Shown: positions 10,273 through 45,976 of the stretch, piece after piece
Layout: the number at the start of each line of letters is the position of its first letter
Position numbering within the stretch: the first letter of the stretch is position 1
IMG/VR virus record: IMGVR_UViG_3300033407_000970
Coordinates: 1-47,793 of that record
Strand: one strand, 5' to 3'
DNA: 47,793 nucleotides
From: a virus
Taxonomy: Duplodnaviria; Caudoviricetes
Notes under the pieces: model-generated
The model's input: only the letters and a program-made list of their open reading frames with translations
Databases searched by the model: none
What the model was told of the DNA's origin: nothing
Translations under genes and position numbers: made by a program

Positions 10273-12567
10273 ATGGCTGACCGGCTCGTCCACACGTACA
10301 CGCCCCGCGGCACCGCCCGCCGACTCTTCCAAACCAAAGACAGCGAAATCCTCCTCAGCGGCCCCGCCGGCACCGGCAAAAGCCGAGCCTGTTTGGAGAA
10401 GCTCCACCTCATGGCGGTCGTCAACCCCGGCATGCGCGGGTTGATCGTCCGCAAAACCGCGTCGTCGCTCACCTCGTCCGCGCTGGTCACGTGGAACCGG
10501 GACGTCACCTCCGAATCCCAACAAGCCGGCGTCCTCGACTTCTACGGCGGCTCCGCTGAAGAACCAGCCCAGTACCGCTACTCGAACGGGTCGAAGGTGA
10601 TGATCGGCGGCATGGACAAGGCATCCAAGATCATGTCCACCGAGTTCGACGTCGTGTACGTGCAGGAGGCGACCGAGCTGACGGAGAACGACTGGGAGTC
10701 GCTGACCACCCGTCTGCGATCCCATCAGGTCAGCTTTCAACAGCTCATCGCGGACTGTAACCCGGCGGAAGAAACCCACTGGTTGAAACGCCGCTGCGAC
10801 CGGGGCCTAACCCTGATGCTCAGGTCGAGACATGAGGACAACCCTCTCCTGTTCGACGAGGCTGGGCAGGCGACCCCGCGGGGCCTCGACTACTTGTCGA
10901 AGCTTGACCGGCTGACCGGCATCCGCAAACGCAGGCTGCGGGACGGGGAATGGTCGTCGGCTGAGGGGGTCATCTATGAGGACTGGGACTCTGCCATCCA
11001 CCTTGTCGACCGGTTCCCCATCCCGGACGGGTGGCAGCGGTGGTGGGCGGTCGACTTCGGATACACCAACCCGTTCGTACTGCAATGCTGGGCCGAAGAC
11101 GAGGACGGCCGCCTGTGGCTGTACAGGGAGTGGTATCACACGCAACGCACGGTGGATGATCACGCCCGCCGGGTGCTCGACGTGGTCGCACCGGACGGCA
11201 AGTGGACCGAACCGAAACCGCGGGCGGTGATCTGTGACCACGATGCTGAAGGCCAAGAGGTGTTACGCCGGGAGTTGGGCCTGCCAATGCGGAACGCTGA
11301 CAAGCGGGTCCAGGACGGCATACAAACGGTGATGCGCCGGTTGAAGCCGGCGGGCGACGGCCGGCCGCGGCTGTACCTGTTGCGGGACTCGCTGGTGGAA
11401 CGCGACCCCGAACTGTACGAGTCGGGGCGGCCCACCTGCACGGCAGACGAGATCCCCTCGTATGTGTGGGCGAACCAGACCGGGCACGGTAAGGGCCTGA
11501 AGGAGGTGCCGGTGAAAGAGGATGATCACGGCTGTCTGATCGCTGGCACCTTGGTCACCACAAGCCGAGGCGCCGTCCCGATTGAACAGGTAGGGGCGGG
11601 TGATTGGGTGCGGGTGCGGGGCGCATGGCGGCTCGTGGAAGACGCAGGGATGACTGATCCTGCCGCCGTCGTATACCGGGCCGTGATGGAGGACGGTCGC
11701 GAACTAGTGGGCACTGGCGACCATCCGGTTTGGGTGCACGCCACCGGCTGGACCCGACTGGACGCACTCCGATACGGTATGATGGTGTCATGCCTAGAAC
11801 CATCCGATACGACGGGCATGCCTACCGCCGGGAAACAGACCGCCCCTACTACAAGCGGACAACACCCGACGGCCCCGAGTACCTTCACCGGCGCATCTAC
11901 CAAGACGTCTACGGGCCGATCCCCGACGGATACTCAGTCCACCACGTCGACTTTGACCCGACCAACAACCAGCCGGACAATCTCGTGGCGCTCCCTGAAG
12001 CAGAGCATCAGGCGCTTCACGTCGAACACCGGCGGGCCAACGGCCTCTACGGTTCTGGGCCGACCGTTCAAGCGTTGGAAGCAGCAGCCGAATGGCACCG
12101 ATCCCCGGAGGGTCGAGAATGGCATCGCCAACACGGCCGCGCCGTATGGGATCGCCGACAGTCGCGCACCCTTGTTTGTGACCAATGTGGCATCGAATAC
12201 GACACCAGGTCCCTCAATGGTGCGGAACGATTCTGCTCCAACAACTGCAAGTCAAGGTGGCGGCGAGAGTCCGGCATCGACAACGAGTCCCGGGAGTGCG
12301 AATGCTGCGGAGCCGGATTCGTTGTCAACCGTTACCAGAAGACCCGCTTCTGTGGTGGTTCGTGTTCTGTCCGTCACACGGCTAGACGGTCGTGTGCCTG
12401 TCTTCAACCTGACGGTCGCCGATCCTGAGCGGCCCGAGTTCTATGCGAACGGGTTGTTGGTGCACAACTGTGACGCCGCCAGGTATATGGCGATGGCCCG
12501 TGAAGAGGCAAAGCCGAGGGTGTTGATGGGTGCCGAGTTGTCGGGCCTGCGGTTAGGGGTGCGCTGA
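10273..12567 (+). CDS. terL: Terminase large subunit (PBSX-like), intein-containing
   Basis: Walker A GPAGTGKS, Walker B VYVQEATE, CNP, nuclease DFGYTNP and DDHG/CDAARY split by an intein. Confidence 0.95.
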   Translation: MADRLVHTYTPRGTARRLFQTKDSEILLSGPAGTGKSRACLEKLHLMAVVNPGMRGLIVRKTASSLTSSALVTWNRDVTSESQQAGVLDFYGGSAEEPAQYRYSNGSKVMIGGMDKASKIMSTEFDVVYVQEATELTENDWESLTTRLRSHQVSFQQLIADCNPAEETHWLKRRCDRGLTLMLRSRHEDNPLLFDEAGQATPRGLDYLSKLDRLTGIRKRRLRDGEWSSAEGVIYEDWDSAIHLVDRFPIPDGWQRWWAVDFGYTNPFVLQCWAEDEDGRLWLYREWYHTQRTVDDHARRVLDVVAPDGKWTEPKPRAVICDHDAEGQEVLRRELGLPMRNADKRVQDGIQTVMRRLKPAGDGRPRLYLLRDSLVERDPELYESGRPTCTADEIPSYVWANQTGHGKGLKEVPVKEDDHGCLIAGTLVTTSRGAVPIEQVGAGDWVRVRGAWRLVEDAGMTDPAAVVYRAVMEDGRELVGTGDHPVWVHATGWTRLDALRYGMMVSCLEPSDTTGMPTAGKQTAPTTSGQHPTAPSTFTGASTKTSTGRSPTDTQSTTSTLTRPTTSRTISWRSLKQSIRRFTSNTGGPTASTVLGRPFKRWKQQPNGTDPRRVENGIANTAAPYGIADSRAPLFVTNVASNTTPGPSMVRNDSAPTTASQGGGESPASTTSPGSANAAEPDSLSTVTRRPASVVVRVLSVTRLDGRVPVFNLTVADPERPEFYANGLLVHNCDAARYMAMAREEAKPRVLMGAELSGLRLGVR
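11533..12468 (+). mobile_element. Intein (312 aa) in terminase nuclease domain; no endonuclease in its own frame
   Basis: CLIAGTLV, GTGDHPVW, VFNLTV...FYANGLLVHN then Cys; middle is Ser/Thr/Pro-rich low-complexity in this frame. Confidence 0.93.
11790..12428 (+). CDS. HNH homing endonuclease nested in an alternate frame inside the terminase intein
   Basis: YLHRRIY...GPIPDGYSVHHVDFDPTNNQPDNL...EH...H plus two CxxC...FCS/FCG zinc modules; TATGAT 6 nt upstream of ATG. Confidence 0.9.
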   Translation: MPRTIRYDGHAYRRETDRPYYKRTTPDGPEYLHRRIYQDVYGPIPDGYSVHHVDFDPTNNQPDNLVALPEAEHQALHVEHRRANGLYGSGPTVQALEAAAEWHRSPEGREWHRQHGRAVWDRRQSRTLVCDQCGIEYDTRSLNGAERFCSNNCKSRWRRESGIDNESRECECCGAGFVVNRYQKTRFCGGSCSVRHTARRSCACLQPDGRRS

Positions 12568-12716
12568 TGGGTTGAGGCGGATCGAAGGACCCGCAGGTGC
12601 GGGCCAAACAACGAGACCAAGCCCGCATCGCAGCCGCCGACCGCAAAGCCAAATTGGAAGCGCAGAGACGGTCGGCGCGGCAGCGGGAACGGCAACGTCG
12701 GAAAGGACAGGTATGA
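12567..12716 (+). CDS. Candidate 49-aa selenoprotein M-G-U-G-G-S-K... (in-frame TGA at codon 3)
   Basis: ATG overlaps terL stop, final TGA overlaps next ATG, SD-like AGGGGT, SECIS-like hairpin 11 nt after the TGA, similarity (DRxAKLE) to downstream CxxC gene. Confidence 0.6.
12587..12605 (+). promoter_or_regulatory. Bacterial SECIS-like stem-loop
   Basis: GG(A)CCCGC-AGGU-GCGGG-CC begins 11 nt after UGA 12573-12575. Confidence 0.55.
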
Positions 12717-12856
12717 CAGTCAGGGAGTGCCGGCCGTGCAAGGGTGGCAAGCGGTTGACACCTAGGGAGCGGGCCGAACTCAAACAGGTGGAACGGGACC
12801 GCCAGGCGAAGCTCGAGCAGGCGCAGGCCGAGGCTGAGCGGATCGCTAGTAAATGA
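12713..12856 (+). CDS. 47-aa CxxC basic coiled-coil protein
   Basis: AAAGGA SD; MTVRECRPCKGGK...DRQAKLE. Confidence 0.7.
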   Translation: MTVRECRPCKGGKRLTPRERAELKQVERDRQAKLEQAQAEAERIASK

Positions 12857-12934: not shown

Positions 12935-14314
12935 GTGACCGATAACACCCTTCCACTCAACCCCGAAGACCGACTCCACCAAACCCTCAACACCGGCAGC
13001 CGAATCGAATACCTCCACGACTCCGGCATCCGCCTCGTCTTTGACTTCATCACCCCCACCTCCAAAGGCGTCGACGCCTGGTGTGAGATCCGATGGCAAG
13101 GCGACACCCCCCAACCCTACGTCATCACCTACGGCCGCCGCGACCTCATGGGGTCCACCACCTCCGACTCGCTCACCAAACAAGCGTTAGGCGCCCTCCG
13201 CAAACACCATCGGGTCGACCCCGACGTCATGCGGGAAGCCATCACCGTCGCCTGCTATCAGGTCATCCAAATCCAATTGGAAGGCGTCGAACCGCTCGTC
13301 CTGTCCCAAGTGCCAGCCAAGAAACAACGGTGGCTGCTCAAACCGCTCGTCGAACACGGCGTCAACCACACGCGGGTCATCGCCGCCGGCGGGTCCGGCA
13401 AATCAGTGTTCGCACTCGCAGTCGCCTACACGGTCGCCACCGGATCGAAACGACTGTTCAAACAAGCCCCCACCGTCACCGGCCCCGTCATCTACCTCGA
13501 CTGGGAAACCTCTGCCGACGTCCACGCCAACCGGCTCGAAGCCCTCTGCAAAGGGATGGGACTCGACGACCCCGGCGACCAGCTCCTCTACCTGCCCATG
13601 CCGCAAGCGCTCGCCCGGTCGGCGCATTGGGTCGCACACACGGTCGCCGAAACCGGGACAGCGATGATCGTCGTCGACTCCAACATTCGAGCCCGAGGCA
13701 CCCCCTCCACATACACGTCCGCCGAAGCCACATCCACGCAACTGTTCGAAGCGTTACGACAGATCGGCGTGCCAGCGTTCATCGTCGACCACAAGTCCGA
13801 CGAGAAGATACGCAAGAACCAGCGGGGCGGATACGGGTCGATCACCAACCAGAACAACATTCGGGTCGAGTGGGAGGTGGCGGGCATGTCGAAGATCCGT
13901 TCGGCTGACCGCCTGTTCGAACAGGTCGAAGTGCGGTATGCGTGGGAGAAGGGCAACAACTCGGCGGCGCAAGAGGACATCGCCTACCGGATCGCGTTTC
14001 AGAACGAGCGGGTGGACGGTGACGAACGGTTGACGTCGATCGAGTTCAACCGGATCGCCCCGTCAACCGTCCAACTGTTCGGGAAGCATCTCGACCCGGT
14101 GTCGCAGGTGGATCGGGCGTGGTCAGTGTTGGCGAACCAGACGGAGCCGATGCCGCTCGCCGACCTGGCGGAAGTGTTGGGTGTGTCGGCCCGGTCTTTG
14201 TCAACGCAGATGGCCCGTGACGCCCGGTTTGAGAATGTGGCACCGCGTGGCCGGCCGGGGTTGTGGCGGGCCGGTACGGGCGACGAGGGTGACGCTTTAC
14301 CGGCACCGTTCTAA
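12935..14314 (+). CDS. AAA/RecA-family (RepA-like) helicase with C-terminal HTH
   Basis: Walker A AAGGSGKS, IYLDWE, Walker B IVVDS, VDH, YGS; C-terminal LADLAEVLGVSARSL. Confidence 0.8.
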   Translation: MTDNTLPLNPEDRLHQTLNTGSRIEYLHDSGIRLVFDFITPTSKGVDAWCEIRWQGDTPQPYVITYGRRDLMGSTTSDSLTKQALGALRKHHRVDPDVMREAITVACYQVIQIQLEGVEPLVLSQVPAKKQRWLLKPLVEHGVNHTRVIAAGGSGKSVFALAVAYTVATGSKRLFKQAPTVTGPVIYLDWETSADVHANRLEALCKGMGLDDPGDQLLYLPMPQALARSAHWVAHTVAETGTAMIVVDSNIRARGTPSTYTSAEATSTQLFEALRQIGVPAFIVDHKSDEKIRKNQRGGYGSITNQNNIRVEWEVAGMSKIRSADRLFEQVEVRYAWEKGNNSAAQEDIAYRIAFQNERVDGDERLTSIEFNRIAPSTVQLFGKHLDPVSQVDRAWSVLANQTEPMPLADLAEVLGVSARSLSTQMARDARFENVAPRGRPGLWRAGTGDEGDALPAPF

Positions 14315-14807: not shown

Positions 14808-15143
14808 GTGAGACGTGTCTGTCCTCTCTGCTGGGGGAAAGGATCAACCCCCAACATCAACCGCGACTACCCGTCCACCCTGCACCGTGACGCACAGATC
14901 ACAATGGAGGCGTCGGTCATTGTCGACCACCTGGCCGCGGATGCTGACTGGCTGCGTGGCGTGTACCAGGATGCCGCGGATCGGGGCGACCTCGCCGAAG
15001 CAGGGCGACTGTTGGTGGAGGCGCACAGGCTGCTTGAGGAGTGGGTGGCCGGGCATAGGTGGGTGCCGCCGGTGTTGGAGCCGTGCAGCCATGCCGACGG
15101 GTATTGTGCGGCGTGTGAACCATTCGTGGAGGTGCCGTCGTGA
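14808..15143 (+). CDS. hypothetical protein with terminal Cys motifs
   Basis: CPLC, C.H...CAAC; GTGA overlap with next gene. Confidence 0.55.
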   Translation: MRRVCPLCWGKGSTPNINRDYPSTLHRDAQITMEASVIVDHLAADADWLRGVYQDAADRGDLAEAGRLLVEAHRLLEEWVAGHRWVPPVLEPCSHADGYCAACEPFVEVPS

Positions 15144-15577
15144 CCGCTGACCTGCTGGCCCTGCCGGTCCTCTGGCAACTGCTCATTCTCACCGTCGCCG
15201 CCTGGTGGGTCACCCGTCTCGTCGTCGTCGCCGACTTCCCCCCAACCGTGTGGCTGCGGGAAACCGTGTGGTCCCGCTGGCCCGCCGACGACACCCTGTA
15301 CCCGGACGACGGGGTCGTGATCCCCGACCCGGACCTGCCGACCGAAGGCGTCGTCAACGGGCGGGTGGCGGTCGACTGGGACGACGGGTTGGAGTTGTGG
15401 CGGCCGATCCGTCCTCGAGCGTTCGGGAACCTGATCTCCTGCCCGTGGTGTGTGTCACCGTATGTCACGGCGGTGGTCGTGGCCGTGTGGGTGTTGTGGC
15501 CGGCGTCGTTGTGGCTGTGGCTCGTCCTTACCATGGCGGGGGTGGAAGCGTTGATCGCCACCAGGGTCGACCGCTAG
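15140..15577 (+). CDS. DUF1360-like membrane protein with CPWC motif
   Basis: VTRLVV.D, LR, LISCPWCVSPY, hydrophobic helices; sits just before portal. Confidence 0.75.
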   Translation: MTADLLALPVLWQLLILTVAAWWVTRLVVVADFPPTVWLRETVWSRWPADDTLYPDDGVVIPDPDLPTEGVVNGRVAVDWDDGLELWRPIRPRAFGNLISCPWCVSPYVTAVVVAVWVLWPASLWLWLVLTMAGVEALIATRVDR

Positions 15578-15596: not shown

Positions 15597-18005
15597 ATGG
15601 CGACTACACGACCTGTCCGCACCCGCCGCACCCCCCAGTCTCGTCGCACGTCGACCGGGACCGTGTTGACGGCAGCGTCGATGCGACTCCCCGACCGGCC
15701 CGACCAAACGCAAGGCCCCGACAAGGGCGGGTTCGGGTTCGGCTGGCAGTCCCGCTGCTGGGACGTGTACGACCAGTTGGGGATGGTGCATTACGGCATG
15801 CAGTTCATCCGGTCGAACGTGGCGATGCTCGAGTTTCGGGTGGCCCGCAAGTCCGACGACCCCGAAGTGGAAGCCGAACCGGTCGACCTTGACGACCCGG
15901 CCGCGGTCGAGTTGGAGCGGATCGGGGAGGGCCCGTACGGGGGTGTGTCGAACCTGATGGCCGAACTGGTCGTGTTCAACCAGGTCGCCGGGGAGGGCTA
16001 CCTGTGCGGGCGGGGGTTGCCGACCGACGAGTCGGACGGTGACGGGGAAGTGTGGGAGGTGCTGACCGGGCAGCAGTTGAAGAAGCGGATAGACGGGGCT
16101 GATAAGAGTCTGGCGCCGATGGTGAAGGTGCGGGTGTGGCGGCCGCATCCGGTGAACCCGACGTGGCCCGACTCGCCGTTGCGGTCGGTGTTGGCCGAGT
16201 GTGAAGAGCTGATCCTGTCCCGCCGGCAAGTGCGGGGCGCGCTCCTGTCGAGGCTGAACAACGGGATACTCCTGTTGGACGAGTCGTTGGACCCGTCGGG
16301 TCCGGCGCCGGCCGGGCAGGGTGACGACACCATGTCCCCCCTACTCCGCGACATGTGGCAGGCGTTCAGTACGGCCATCCAAGAGCCGGAAGCCGCCACG
16401 CAGGTCATGCCCTATTTGTTGATGGGCAACGACGTCAAAGACAAGATCGACTATTTGGCTTTGGATCGGCCGTTCGATTCGTTCGCCATCGAACTTCGCG
16501 ACGACTTGACCCGTGCCATCGCCGCCGGCCTCGACCTACCCGCCGAACGACTCACCGGCATATCCGACTCAAACCATTGGAACGTGTGGTTTATCGGCGA
16601 CAGTGAGTACGCCCAGCATCTCGCCCCGGCGGTGGATCTGGTCGTTAACGGTGTCGTCCGTGACCTGTTGCGTCCGGCGTGGCAGGCGGCCGGGTTGGAC
16701 CCCGACGAGTACACGCTGATCGTCGACCCGACCGCTTTGACGTCGCGGGTGCGGAAGGGCGCCGACGCAGTGTTGGCGTTCGATCGGGGCGCCTTGTCAG
16801 AGGATGCGTTGCGGCGGGAACTCGGCTTTGACGATGGGGACCGCCCGTCGGTGTTGTCGCCGGGCGTTGGTGGCACAGTGGGGACGGCACCCGCAGCAGG
16901 GGCGGATACGGTGGACGCGGGTATGCCCGACGAACCGGGCACGGTGCCGGCGGGTGATGCTGCGCCTGTGTTGCCGATCGAAGAGTTGAAGGACCGTGCC
17001 GAAGTGTTCGGCATCCTGTTCCGGGCTGGTGTCACCCCGGAGACGGCGGCGGAGGCGGCGGGTATTGCCGGGCTCGAGTTCACCGGTGACGAGCCGGTGA
17101 CGTTGCGGGAACCCGGTGTGTCGGCGTCTGGTCTGTCGCTGGTCGCCGCTGCAGGGGACGATGGGAATGATCCGGTTGTGGCGGCGGCGTTGGCGTTGGC
17201 CGCGATCGACGCCGCCGTGTTGCGCCGCCTGGAACGGGAAGTCGCCCGGGTGCATGATCAGGTGATGGCCGAGACGGAATCCCGTCTGCGTGGCCTGTTG
17301 GATGCGGCCGGTGTGAACACGGACGGGATGGCCGCCACCGATTTGGCGCGGGCGGTGGCAGAGTCGGGGATCGACCCGGCAGAAGCCGTGCCGGACGGGG
17401 CGTACGCCGCGGTGGCCGCGACAGCTGGCGCGGTGCTAGCGAGGGGCCAGGATGATGCGTACAGGACGGTGCGGCGCCTCTCATCCGGGCTTGAACGGGA
17501 GTCACCTGTGCGGGACGACGACGCCGAATCCGCCGCACTCGGGTTGGCGGTTGGAGGGTTGGTCGGGTCGTTGACGTCTTGGCTGCGGGAGAAACTGTTC
17601 ACGGTGGCTGGCGCCGACCCCGACACTGGGGAACTACTCGCCGGCCGGACGGATGGGATCAACCCGCCCCTGTCGATCATGGTCAACGCCGCCACCGTTG
17701 CGGGCGGTGGACAAGGGGCGACCGTCGGATCGGTTGGTGTTGCGAACGGGCAGCAGGTCGAATCATGGTTGGATGGCCTGTCGGTGTCGACGACTGGTTG
17801 GGTGTGGCAGTACGGCGACCCGGGCATGCGGGCCTCACAGTTCGAACCGCATCGCCGCCTGGACGGTCAAGTGTTTGCGGATTGGGAATCGGATGTGCTG
17901 GCCCATTCGGGGTGGCCCGGTTCTCGGTTGGCGCCGCAGGATCATCGGGGTTGTGGTTGTGGCGCGGCGAGGGTGCTGGCTGCCCCACCGCCAACACAAG
18001 TGTGA
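15597..18005 (+). CDS. Portal protein with C-terminal MuF-like (head morphogenesis) domain
   Basis: RVWRPHP...DSPLR, SRL..G.LLL, IA.GLD.P.E.LTG....NHW; C-terminal WVW...H..LDG...P.DH.GC.C. Confidence 0.85.
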   Translation: MATTRPVRTRRTPQSRRTSTGTVLTAASMRLPDRPDQTQGPDKGGFGFGWQSRCWDVYDQLGMVHYGMQFIRSNVAMLEFRVARKSDDPEVEAEPVDLDDPAAVELERIGEGPYGGVSNLMAELVVFNQVAGEGYLCGRGLPTDESDGDGEVWEVLTGQQLKKRIDGADKSLAPMVKVRVWRPHPVNPTWPDSPLRSVLAECEELILSRRQVRGALLSRLNNGILLLDESLDPSGPAPAGQGDDTMSPLLRDMWQAFSTAIQEPEAATQVMPYLLMGNDVKDKIDYLALDRPFDSFAIELRDDLTRAIAAGLDLPAERLTGISDSNHWNVWFIGDSEYAQHLAPAVDLVVNGVVRDLLRPAWQAAGLDPDEYTLIVDPTALTSRVRKGADAVLAFDRGALSEDALRRELGFDDGDRPSVLSPGVGGTVGTAPAAGADTVDAGMPDEPGTVPAGDAAPVLPIEELKDRAEVFGILFRAGVTPETAAEAAGIAGLEFTGDEPVTLREPGVSASGLSLVAAAGDDGNDPVVAAALALAAIDAAVLRRLEREVARVHDQVMAETESRLRGLLDAAGVNTDGMAATDLARAVAESGIDPAEAVPDGAYAAVAATAGAVLARGQDDAYRTVRRLSSGLERESPVRDDDAESAALGLAVGGLVGSLTSWLREKLFTVAGADPDTGELLAGRTDGINPPLSIMVNAATVAGGGQGATVGSVGVANGQQVESWLDGLSVSTTGWVWQYGDPGMRASQFEPHRRLDGQVFADWESDVLAHSGWPGSRLAPQDHRGCGCGAARVLAAPPPTQV

Positions 18006-18030
18006 TAGACTCCGGGTAGGAGGTGCAACC

Positions 18031-18585
18031 ATGCGCAAGATTCCGACACTGTTTGAACGCGACTGGTTTGGGGACCGCTCCCGCGTCACCCGTGAGGTGA
18101 ATCCCGATGCCCTCTGGGTCATCGACGGTGAAGGCGTCCCGACCGTCAAGTGGGATGGCACCGCTGTCATGATCGATGAGAGCGGCGGCTATTGGAAGCG
18201 TTACGAGGTGAAGAAGGGCAAGACGCCGCCAGGCGGGTTCTTGCCCGCCGACGACCCAGACCCCAATACGGGGAAGCAACAGGGGTGGGTCAGGGTCGAC
18301 CCGAATGACCCCGCCGACAAGTGGCATATGGAAGCTTGGGACCGCTATGAGCCGGGCACGTACGAGCTGGTTGGTCCGAAGGTGCAAGGCAACCCCCACG
18401 ACCTCGATCAACACATGCTGAAGCCACACGGCTTCAAGAAGTGCAAGGATGACCCTCGGACGTTTGATGATGTCGCAATGTTCCTGCGCTTCCATCCTTT
18501 TGAGGGCATCGTCTGGCATCACCCCGACGGGCGCATGGTGAAGGTCAAGGCGCGCGACTTCGGGATTGAGTGGCCACGAAGGTAA
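18031..18585 (+). CDS. RNA ligase-like nucleotidyltransferase (DUF5565-like)
   Basis: KIPTLF.R, motif I KWDGT, YELVGPKVQGNP, EGIVW, K.K..DF. Confidence 0.75.
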   Translation: MRKIPTLFERDWFGDRSRVTREVNPDALWVIDGEGVPTVKWDGTAVMIDESGGYWKRYEVKKGKTPPGGFLPADDPDPNTGKQQGWVRVDPNDPADKWHMEAWDRYEPGTYELVGPKVQGNPHDLDQHMLKPHGFKKCKDDPRTFDDVAMFLRFHPFEGIVWHHPDGRMVKVKARDFGIEWPRR

Positions 18586-20146: not shown

Positions 20147-21883
20147 GTGGACCCCGTACGACTCTCCGAACTGCTCAACAAGATCGGCAACGCCGACACC
20201 CCCGAAGCCGTCGCCGAACTCCTCGCACCGCTCACCGCCGGTGAACTCGCCGAAGTCAAAACCGCGCTCGCTGAGACGGCGACTCAGATCGCGTCGAAGG
20301 TGAAGGCCGGCGAGCCGGTCGAAGTCGACGACAAGCCGCTCACCCCCAAGGACGCCCTCGACATTGCGAAGGCGGCGAAGGCCAACATCGCCGTCGTGGA
20401 TGGGCGCCTCGACGAACTCGCCAAGGACGAGGCCGACCTGGCCGCCGAAGTGGACTCAGTGCTCGACGGTCTCGACATCGAACCCAAGGTTGAAGCGCCG
20501 CCGGAGGTGAAGCCGGAAGAGGCACCCGCACCGGCACCGGCCGCCGAAGCACCTGCCGAGACACCGGTGGATGCCGAACCCGAGCCGATCGCCGCATCCG
20601 CCAAGCCCAAGCCGGTCAAGGCCGACCTCGGCAACATCCGTCGGAACCAGCGGCCACAACCCCAACCCGAACCGACTGGACCCGTCACGGTGCTCACCGC
20701 AGCCGGCAACCTCGACTCGCAGGGCATCTCCGCTGGGCGAGCGTTCCCCACGGCGAAGGCGTTGGGTGAGGCGATGGCCGAAGCCGGCCGGGCACTCCCC
20801 GCCGGTGGCGGCAAAATCAAGGTCGCGCAAGCCAGGTTCGGTCACGAACTGCCGGACGTGCCGGACAATCCGGAAGAGGCGTTCCTGTTTTTGAAGAACA
20901 TTGCCCGGCAGGCGGAACGTGGCGAGGACGTCCTCGTAGCGTCCGGCGGGTTCTGTGCCCCGTCGATGCCGGTATACGACTTCTTCAACATCGGCGCAAG
21001 GGACGGACTGTTGCAGCTCCCCACCGTCAACTCGGAACGCGGCAGCATCACATATCCGGTGTCACCGGGTGTCGCGGACCTGCTCGCACAGGACGGCATC
21101 GCCGACCAGTGGACCAACGCCACCGACATCACCCCCGGTGAGGACACGAAAGCCGTGTTCACCCCGGCGTGTGTCGAAACGCTGGCCTGTGAGGTCGCCG
21201 CGTATCCGACCCAGTTGCAGTTCGGGAACTTCCAACAGATCTTCTACCCCGAGTTCGTCGCACACATGACGTCCGAGAGCTTGATTACCCATGATCACAA
21301 GGTTGACATTGCTCTCCTCGCTGCCCTGTCGGGGTTGGTGACGGAGTCGCAGGTCGCCGGGGACACGGGTGGTGGCACGTTCATCCAGGTGTCGCAGACG
21401 CTGGCATGGTTCTCGGTGTGGTATCGGAACAAGTGGCGCACCGCCCGTGACCTTCGACTGACCACCCTCGTACCGGTGTGGCTGTGGGAGGCGTTGGTGG
21501 CGGACGTGTGGGCCCGTCGGGACGCAACCGACAAGACCCGTGCCACGGCCGAGGTCCTGTCGATGTTCGACCAGTTGAACTTGGACGTCCAGTTCCTCCA
21601 CAACTTGAACCCGATCGGTGGGAACCCGGGCGGCCGGTTCGACCCGGCCGACGTGTACATGTTCGCACCGGGCACGGTCGTCCGGCAGACGAGGGGCCGC
21701 CTCGACCTGGGTGTCACTCGGGATTCGACGCTCAACTCGACGAACGATTTTCAGACGTTCGTGGAAACGTTCGACGGGTTGTGCCGTCCGGGCAACGAGA
21801 TCCTGAAGATCAACAACGTGGTTGCCTGCCCGACGGGTGGTGTGGGTGCTGAGGACACGGTGACGTGCCCGACCACCTCGTAA
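20147..21883 (+). CDS. Major capsid (hexamer) protein with N-terminal scaffold region
   Basis: Coiled-coil and Pro/Ala N-terminus; VASGGFCAP...YD, LDLGV.RDSTLN..ND.Q.F.E.F, CPTG motifs of cluster-B-like capsids. Confidence 0.9.
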   Translation: MDPVRLSELLNKIGNADTPEAVAELLAPLTAGELAEVKTALAETATQIASKVKAGEPVEVDDKPLTPKDALDIAKAAKANIAVVDGRLDELAKDEADLAAEVDSVLDGLDIEPKVEAPPEVKPEEAPAPAPAAEAPAETPVDAEPEPIAASAKPKPVKADLGNIRRNQRPQPQPEPTGPVTVLTAAGNLDSQGISAGRAFPTAKALGEAMAEAGRALPAGGGKIKVAQARFGHELPDVPDNPEEAFLFLKNIARQAERGEDVLVASGGFCAPSMPVYDFFNIGARDGLLQLPTVNSERGSITYPVSPGVADLLAQDGIADQWTNATDITPGEDTKAVFTPACVETLACEVAAYPTQLQFGNFQQIFYPEFVAHMTSESLITHDHKVDIALLAALSGLVTESQVAGDTGGGTFIQVSQTLAWFSVWYRNKWRTARDLRLTTLVPVWLWEALVADVWARRDATDKTRATAEVLSMFDQLNLDVQFLHNLNPIGGNPGGRFDPADVYMFAPGTVVRQTRGRLDLGVTRDSTLNSTNDFQTFVETFDGLCRPGNEILKINNVVACPTGGVGAEDTVTCPTTS

Positions 21884-21903
21884 CCTGAACGCCTAGACGG
21901 ATG

Positions 21904-21927
21904 GGACCCCCCACGGTTGGGGGGTCC
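21904..21927. terminator. Hairpin after capsid gene
   Basis: ggacccccca-cggt-tggggggtcc perfect 10-bp stem. Confidence 0.65.
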
Positions 21928-21981
21928 TGCCGCGTCCAGACGTGATACACTGCCATGGTTAGCGACCGGAGGTGCAATCCG

Positions 21982-32509: not shown

Positions 32510-32544
32510 ACGTGTGATAGACTGACGGTCAGGAGGTGCAACCC

Positions 32545-33342
32545 ATGACCTGGCCGCAGGACACTGTCAAACAACTACTAACCCGCCGCGGGATCGGCTG
32601 GACCGGTATCCGCCGCATCGTCGAAGTCGGATCAACAGCCCACGGCATCAGCTCCCCCGACACCGGCGACGACTTCGATTACACCGTCATCCGAGTCGAA
32701 CCGTTCGACGAGATGATCATCGGTCCCGACAGTCGCCAATCAATGATGATCCGAACCCAGCCTGACGGGATGCGGTCGCGGATGGGCGACGTCGACTTGC
32801 AGGTATACACCCTCCGCAAGTTCGCACACCTAGCAGCCAAGGGGAACCCCTCCATACTCGCCGCCATGTTCTCCCCGCTGGTCCGTCACGGTTCGCAACA
32901 CTCGGACCTGTTCGAAGAGTTGGCGTCGATCGTCGCAACGTCGGCGGCGGGTGACGCGTTCCTCGGATACACCCGCCAGCAGATCGAACGTTGGATCGGT
33001 GTGCGCGGACAGAAGAACGTCAACCGTCCCGAACTGGTCGACGCCTACGGGTTCGACACCAAATACGCGGCGCATGTGATCCGTCTCGCCCATCAGGGCA
33101 TCGAGTACATGCACACAGGCCGGTTCACGATGCCCATGCCAGACGACGTAGCGGCCGAGATCGTGTCGCTGCGGACCGGCGGATACACCGAGCATGAAGC
33201 CCTGAAGTGGGCTGCTGAGATGGAAGACGAACTCAAGGCTGCCATTGACCTTTCAACGTTGCCGCCGAAGCCTGCCGTGGCGGCGGTGAACCGTTGGCTG
33301 ATAGGCGTGTACGAGTCGGAGATGCCTGCGGTTGTAGACTGA
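32545..33342 (+). CDS. Pol-beta-superfamily nucleotidyltransferase (RNA-repair-associated type)
   Basis: VGS.AHG...D.D, Y.LRKF..LA.KGNP, GY...Q, GFDTKYA.H..RL..QG.E. Confidence 0.85.
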   Translation: MTWPQDTVKQLLTRRGIGWTGIRRIVEVGSTAHGISSPDTGDDFDYTVIRVEPFDEMIIGPDSRQSMMIRTQPDGMRSRMGDVDLQVYTLRKFAHLAAKGNPSILAAMFSPLVRHGSQHSDLFEELASIVATSAAGDAFLGYTRQQIERWIGVRGQKNVNRPELVDAYGFDTKYAAHVIRLAHQGIEYMHTGRFTMPMPDDVAAEIVSLRTGGYTEHEALKWAAEMEDELKAAIDLSTLPPKPAVAAVNRWLIGVYESEMPAVVD

Positions 33343-45944: not shown

Positions 45945-45976
45945 AGGACACCCCCCACCCTGGTGGGGGGTGTTTT
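45945..45976. terminator. Terminator between convergent genes
   Basis: acaccccccacc / ggtggggggtgt inverted repeat followed by T run. Confidence 0.75.

Follow-up and report, generated by a model that had tools for sequence, protein, structure and literature searches.

In bacterial genes, delivery of selenocysteine (Sec) to an in-frame UGA is an established process in which SelB, acting on a hairpin downstream of the codon, brings in the Sec-tRNA; in Escherichia coli fdhF the upper stem-loop of this hairpin, the Sec insertion sequence (SECIS), starts 11 nt after the UGA and carries GCAGGU at its apex. Here we describe a candidate selenoprotein gene of this kind in a tailed virus (Duplodnaviria; Caudoviricetes; IMG/VR record IMGVR_UViG_3300033407_000970), of which positions 1 to 47,793, hereafter the window, were analysed; these 47,793 nt are the whole virus record. 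The gene follows that of the terminase large subunit (terL) and has TGA as its third codon, which, judging from sequence comparisons, is most likely read as Sec, a conclusion that is well supported but unproven.

Among described systems, the closest are bacterial selenoprotein genes with a SECIS inside the open reading frame (ORF), such as fdh alpha (accessible text of PMC13188914). As in these genes, the UGA of the phage gene falls on a conserved Cys and is followed 11 nt downstream by a hairpin that extends from +12 to +30 and has a G in the first two loop positions. In contrast to them, it belongs to a phage on which no Sec machinery was found, encodes 49 residues without a known enzyme fold, would carry Sec at codon 3, and places the loop GU 2 nt further out. 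The glutathione peroxidase selenoproteins of poxviruses (molluscum contagiosum, fowlpox; available portion of PMC8310308) are likewise encoded by virus genes relying on host Sec machinery, but there a eukaryotic SECIS accompanies a captured host enzyme, whereas here a bacterial SECIS would accompany a phage-specific family. Phage tRNA-Sec genes suggest that phages use Sec, and no phage selenoprotein is named in the accessible part of the report describing them (PMC10747093); in the present phage, conversely, there is a candidate protein, whereas the search for tRNA genes found none. Finally, DUF7196 (PF23826)/phrog_2069 proteins, which start with M-G-C-N-C-G, share the N-terminal motif and the head-module location, and the tail of one TGA-bearing gene discussed below (L082) resembles their type; the window protein differs from them in its plain helical tail and in giving no hit to their model, and the TGA forms have U-G-G (U, Sec) for C-x-C. 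The main text of a 2026 review of prokaryotic selenoproteomes contains neither 'phage' nor 'virus', and the deep-Sep paper neither 'phage' nor 'viral'. Our literature search, outside whose range lay subscription papers and supplements, the tables of which could hold phage entries, found no phage selenoprotein of this kind. The mechanism is thus a known one, and the setting and protein family are without a report in the literature searched.

The ORF is a real, constrained gene. As the initial annotation had claimed, a frame of 49 codons opens if the TGA is read through, an AGGGGT precedes it, and it fills its slot by overlaps on both sides: the terL stop (TGA, 12565-12567) overlaps its ATG (12567-12569), and its final TGA (12714-12716) overlaps the ATG of the next gene (12713). 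The 49 residues include 16 K/R and 5 D/E (net charge +11), and AlphaFold predicts a helix over residues 9-48 (mean pLDDT 75.6), that is, a basic helix of about 40 residues behind the putative N-terminal Sec. Elsewhere in the window TGA is an ordinary stop. Because it ends 13 of 25 checked genes, it is not reassigned in this phage, and genome-wide reassignment was rejected; TGG codons number 239. No tRNA gene and no Rfam family match was found in the window, in agreement with the annotation's statement that tRNA-Sec is absent from it.

Strain variants bear directly on the reality of the TGA. A contig that is 95% identical to the window over the aligned region (L001) retains both TGA and hairpin. 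Among eight aligned sequencing runs, codon 3 is covered by X3, X6 and X8 and is TGA in all three (X2, X7, X13 and X17 do not reach it, and the X4 pieces end on either side of it). Sequencing error was accordingly rejected, and the one-off mutation or error that the annotation had named as its refutation is contradicted by the presence of TGA in these four sources and in two more distant phages, L082 and L143. In the read-through frame, synonymous codon changes outnumber non-synonymous ones by 7:1 in L001, 6:0 in X6 and 3:1 in X7 (some of them shared), whereas in the other two frames the changes are mostly non-synonymous. The tail of the gene is under purifying selection. One X7 contig tracks the end of terL and departs from the window sequence at 12568; this sister phage has a different gene after terL.

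Because the peptide is so short and charged, direct searches fail: with the read-through protein they returned only the L001 contig, or nothing, and the matches listed for genes following terL in 56 terL relatives include no TGA form besides that contig. Related phages were hence gathered by portal match (phrog_776). The resulting 102 loci, which include duplicates and short fragments, comprise 49 with an M-x-C-x-C gene (defined as 30-90 residues starting M-x-C-[GN]-C), 5 with a TGA form, none with both and 48 with neither; the window has no second gene of M-x-C-x-C type. The Cys genes are located after terL, before the portal gene, or between the protease and capsid genes. In L061 (portal 49% identical) gene order is that of the window (terL, small gene, AAA gene, DUF1360, portal), and each of the five more remote loci whose terL is of the window type (57-65% identity) has a Cys gene between terL and portal. 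When the family is aligned, the TGA occupies the place of the invariant first Cys, and a Gly takes that of the second, every TGA form having U-G-G where its relatives have C-x-C. On the profile of the helical family members the window protein scores 8.5 bits, above 1000 full shuffles. Tails differ across the family (helix, hairpin-helix, Pro-rich) and the N-terminal thiols stay constant, which suggests that it is the thiols that do the work. Among the pre-capsid members, some belong to DUF7196/phrog_2069 (L074 and L121 above the Pfam cut-off, L095 and L113 weakly); neither the window protein nor L082 gives a hit to that Pfam model. The site is always TGA, never TAA or TAG, in the window lineage, L082, L143 and L539, a weak criterion because Cys to TGA is one step; the locus of one TAG look-alike (L089:5481) carries a Cys gene of its own. 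In 6 of 39 Cys-type genes (L061:3251, L064:9232, L067:5191, L126:704, L134:1866, L142:97) a TANNNT hexamer ends 6 nt before the start, as in leaderless transcripts, and these genes may be expressed independently.

Two further, distant lineages show the same combination of TGA and hairpin. Early TGAs of any context with a hairpin of strict geometry behind them were sought without requiring the M-G-TGA-G-G motif. This gave 11 rows, and outside the window lineage these contained a single M-G-TGA-G-G frame, L082. It lies between the protease and capsid genes, like the DUF7196-type Cys genes, in a phage whose portal is 29% identical to that of the window (27-29% for L082 and L143). Scored against nine pre-capsid Cys genes as a profile, the L082 tail by itself exceeds every one of 1000 shuffles; similarity continuing past the Sec site is thus seen for L082, the window tail not being specific. 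The window and L082 have GTGCG in common at +22 to +26 after the TGA. The L082 orthologue L143, in a genome 72-82% identical to that of L082, reads M-A-TGA-G-G with one extra codon. Its hairpin core is identical to that of L082 at 15/15 nt, and identical codons amount to 4/4 in the core, 13/33 in the tail and 195/360 in the capsid gene. A complete scan for ATG-GGN-TGA-GGN-GG-N16-GTG gave 35 matches and yielded L082 and L539; for L539 the search pattern imposed both motif and GTG. L539 is an 81-codon M-G-TGA-G-G-G ORF (2001-2246) that fills its gene gap exactly, with TAATG and TAGATG junctions, in the head-tail region of a 58.8-kb phage whose capsid and portal differ from those of the window (no capsid match); its hairpin has -15.6 kcal/mol. 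The tail of its protein is unlike both other types, and the protein has been deposited cut to 71 aa (P0044, P0045). Among the 276 matches listed in three viral scans, a tight gene-slot test was passed only by the L001 contig (twice) and L539, all of which also pass the SECIS test; L082 fails the slot test because its next gene starts more than 100 nt later. Outside the window lineage, 1.2 Mb contained 3 ORFs of this TGA kind, against 0.25 in 20 shuffles; one of the three, L071, looks like chance. Other pattern scans (1 match; the best 120 of about 210; the best 120 of about 250) revealed no new lineage. Inspection eliminated four weak profile matches (L161:9798, L111:17393, L101:2136, L071:946). 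A further type of frame, M-G-TGA-G-C-G-C with a hairpin of -8.7 to -13.3 kcal/mol, recurs in L411, L419, L479, L382 and L408; none of these passed the gene-slot test, and they may be an alternative reading frame of some gene.

The hairpin described in the initial annotation, GG-A-CCCGC-AGGU-GCGGG-CC, is recovered by folding 11 nt after the UGA (19 nt, -12.7 kcal/mol; z -3.05 for a 28-nt piece). A terminator reading was rejected, the element not being called as one and lacking a U-tail. The accessible text of PMC13188914 gives a bacterial SECIS model with a loop of 3-9 nt, a stem of 4-16 bp and a G in the first two loop positions, at 16-37 nt from the UGA and at most -7.5 kcal/mol; in our own implementation of it the window passes, as do L001, L082 and L539. 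The loop G has been used to tell Sec from Cys forms (PMC13582414, available part). Among 28 actinobacterial fdh genes taken as controls, all from the class of an Actinomycetota bin (G003), most hairpins span +12/+13 to +29/+30. The annotated likeness to fdh SECIS elements thus holds for the 11-nt spacer and the footprint, and does not extend to the loop GU, which lies at +22/+23 in the phage and at +20/+21 in the 28 controls. A strict geometry, set after inspecting the window and fdh hairpins, is found in the window TGA gene and in 21 of the 28 fdh controls; it also occurs in 1 of 39 genes of the Cys type and in 7 of the 1294 TGAs of the window. The hairpin is unchanged in every window-lineage variant that covers it. 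Rfam SECIS covariance models gave no match to it, two fdh SECIS controls being likewise unmatched.

A number of results weigh against reading the TGA as Sec. On its own, the hairpin is within chance: in energy it takes 37th place among the window's 1292 hairpins linked to a TGA, a TGA with an AGGT hairpin of at least 5 pairs is present in 21.5% of 200 shuffled copies of the window, and a loose SECIS test is passed by 205 of 1294 window TGAs (16%). When a 68-nt piece is folded, another structure is preferred. Third positions within the hairpin are variable at 0/7 against 12/48 overall, which is not significant (p 0.11). Of the two signals in homologues to which the annotation had pointed, Cys/TGA alternation was found at the same position, with TGA kept in strains and two further lineages, and covariation was not, since no pair has changed on both sides. 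The consensus fold of L082 and L143 reaches only -1.55 kcal/mol, with one one-sided change; L143 by itself just misses the SECIS model (-7.2 versus -7.5 kcal/mol; z 0.69), and a longer piece of it prefers another fold. A search for the exact hairpin with 3 mismatches in 38 selD-bearing genomes gave 9 matches, none with TGA, and 9 in controls; scanning 151 genomes with a loose SECIS pattern, and 401 with the full motif (1 match versus 1 control), likewise gave results at chance level. As for the family, BLASTP aligned the window and L061 proteins nowhere, 106 of 1000 tail shuffles match the profile score of the window protein, the helical tail of which aligns poorly with the Cys relatives, and it is by slot, length, composition and five N-terminal residues that this protein is assigned to the family. 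For L539 the search for a Cys homologue found none, and the motif-imposed search and the retrospective geometry noted above belong here too. The tally is five genes (window, L001, L082, L143, L539) and strain variants in three lineages, short of the ten candidate examples that are among published selenoprotein-family criteria (10.1101/2022.07.06.499078, as far as its accessible text goes). Searches of Pfam, PHROG, NCBIfam and PDB with the window protein gave no match, and nothing credible came from querying PDB with the two family alignments. It is the comparison with other phages that lifts the pairing of TGA and hairpin above chance. What supports Sec lies at the level of sequence: the slot, the Cys/TGA alternation, the coding constraint, the hairpin geometry and the recurrence in three lineages.

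Initiation at the in-frame GTG 12597, with ATG-GGT-TGA as a relic or a two-codon leader, would instead yield a 39-residue basic helix without a Cys/Sec site, and we consider it improbable. An AAGGA stands 7 nt upstream of this codon, an in-frame GTG is found at the hairpin tip in L082, L143 and L539 as well, public gene calls use GTG for L539 (P0044), and most synonymous changes lie downstream of it; predicted accessibility does not discriminate between the two starts, both ATG 12567 and GTG 12597 being partly paired. Such a start, however, omits the only invariant residue of the family and does not explain M-[GA]-TGA-G-G in three lineages. Upstream of the GTG, L082 has only GGAG at 4 nt and L539 has GGAGG at 13 nt, and the two L001 changes that fall between TGA and GTG leave the read-through protein unaltered. 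Very improbable, in our estimation, is insertion of Cys or Trp by a near-cognate or suppressor tRNA, the hairpin being a general read-through stimulator. The loop, 2 nt off the fdh SECIS position, fits this idea, but no tRNA gene was found in the window or in the L082 or L539 phages, the use of TGA as a stop speaks against reassignment, spacer, stem and loop G conform to the published SECIS model, and a change of chemistry would account for the absence of the second Cys from every TGA form. We attach minimal probability to the Sec codon being mainly a selenium sensor, with read-through leading ribosomes to the next gene at its overlapping start and the peptide itself of secondary importance: the ATGA overlap in the window, the TAGATG junction in L539 and the cheapness of termination at codon 3 favour it, but the next gene lies more than 100 nt away in L082 and L143, Cys forms occupy the same slots without a sensor, and the tails are conserved as protein. 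A dead gene, its Cys codon (TGC/TGT) turned into TGA by a single change and its role taken over by the Cys-bearing CxxC paralogue next door, is scarcely credible and already largely refuted by the synonymous excess in three variants, by the TGA and open tail that L082 and L143 keep at 72-82% genome identity, and by the parallel loss of the second Cys with a correctly spaced hairpin in separate lineages.

If the TGA is read as Sec, the machinery would have to come from the host, which is probably a member of the Actinomycetota: the best cultured terL matches infect Thermobifida and Streptomyces, the capsid matches are actinobacteriophages, and one portal relative is named from an Acidimicrobiia bin. 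In the class of G003, selD is present in 45 of 121 genomes, a tally that includes seven flagged as unpublished (G009, G017, G026, G032, G034, G038, G045) and is the only result here to draw on them, and G003 itself has selB, selD and a TGA-bearing fdh. A related portal was found in 6 of 401 genomes; selA is present in 3 of the 5 tested, so this phage family meets Sec-positive hosts. Five prophage stretches with a related portal have a Cys-type gene in three cases and the TGA form in none, and Cys-type genes occur in the prophages of two selA-positive genomes, indicating that Sec is optional, a further point to set against our interpretation. According to the accessible texts, Sec machinery is present in about 40% of 244 mycobacterial genomes (PMC13449736) and in all 84 Actinomarina genomes (10.64898/2026.04.03.716425).

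We propose that ribosomes finishing terL would restart at the overlapping ATG 12567 and that host SelB, acting on the hairpin 11 nt downstream, would deliver at codon 3 a Sec-tRNA supplied by the actinomycetotal host. Initiator Met is as a rule removed before Gly, which here would leave Gly-Sec-Gly-Gly ahead of the basic helix. From gene position and motif, the product is likely a head-assembly or virion accessory protein, and the CxC of its relatives may be a redox or metal-binding site; as the second Cys is absent in every TGA form, one selenol would stand in for the thiol pair. Our best guess is that Sec forms an intermolecular Se-S or Se-Se link, or serves as a metal ligand, and in this way anchors the helix to packaged DNA or a partner, the redox link and the metal ligand being about evenly probable. 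Termination at the TGA would yield only Met-Gly, and output is therefore predicted to depend on host selenium supply. Because the signature is shared by two other distant lineages, these phages likely make a selenium-containing protein via host machinery. On balance we lean, without great confidence, towards the broader proposal of a phage-specific selenoprotein family, in which tailed phages have repeatedly turned the N-terminal CxC of a common head-module micro-protein into a single Sec (U-G-G) and have each time evolved a SECIS in the first dozen codons, giving a selenium-containing virion or assembly component whose synthesis depends on host Sec.

The coordinates of the locus are collected in Table 1.

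Table 1. Features of the candidate selenoprotein locus and of the surrounding head module in the window
Feature	Position	Strand	Remarks
Terminase large subunit with intein	10273..12567	+	PHROG phrog_2, E 2.7e-39; Pfam Terminase_3, weak intein matches
Shine-Dalgarno-like AGGGGT	12555..12560	+	6 nt upstream of ATG; X6 and X8 variants have G at 12555
Candidate selenoprotein ORF, M-G-(TGA)-G-G plus basic helix	12567..12716	+	likely of the M-x-C-x-C small-protein family; 49 codons
In-frame TGA, codon 3	12573..12575	+	on the invariant Cys of the family; present in L001, X3, X6, X8
Rival start, AAGGA 12585-12589 with in-frame GTG 12597-12599	12585..12599	+	partly within the hairpin
SECIS-like hairpin	12587..12605	+	11 nt after TGA; AGGU loop on a stem of 7 pairs with a single bulge; U-tail absent
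47-aa neighbour, CxxC-K-G-G and similar charged helix	12713..12856	+	ATGA overlap with the TGA gene
AAA_25 primase/helicase-like gene	12935..14314	+	gene order as in L061
DUF1360 membrane protein	15140..15577	+	before the portal gene
Portal protein phrog_776	15597..18005	+	bait for related phages
Major capsid protein	20147..21883	+	phrog_777, NF033847

The next gene downstream is a probable paralogue of the TGA gene. The initial annotation had noted their resemblance and the position of a Cys near that of the UGA, and BLASTP reduces this likeness to one match of 7 residues (E 0.018). The neighbour opens with C-R-P-C-K-G-G, which contains a CxxC motif, and orthologues from other phages make better Cys comparators than it does. 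Searches with the neighbour returned only near-identical copies, with no Atlas match at or above 0.8. In variants of X4, X7 and X13 (12790-12808) and in protein P0042 it reads ADRKAK, like the TGA gene (ADRKAKLE in P0042), which suggests duplication or exchange between the two. Upstream, the terL intein is absent from L001 and run X3 (empty allele), and L001 still has TGA and hairpin. The intein region (11530-12470) contains, in another frame, a 232-aa HNH endonuclease ORF (11730-12428, +). At 243-2477, a DNA methyltransferase with LAGLIDADG and weak intein-splicing matches probably contains a second intein. An RNA ligase ORF (17653-18585) overlaps the end of the portal gene, and an RlaP-family nucleotidyltransferase (32536-33342) stands among the tail genes that are also present in the window. 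Very stable hairpins (-22 kcal/mol) at about 21900-21930, just past the capsid stop, and at about 45945-45975 are probably terminators.

Should the Sec reading be true, phages would have their own selenoproteins, encoded within a family of morphogenesis genes of no known function, and phage growth or host range would be tied to the selenium pathway of the host. It would also mean that a distance of eight codons from a start site, itself coupled to an upstream gene, is enough for a SECIS to work, and that gene callers miss such genes, which are dropped or cut at codon 3. For the M-x-C-x-C micro-proteins that are common in actinobacteriophage head modules, a role in redox or metal chemistry would then be suggested.

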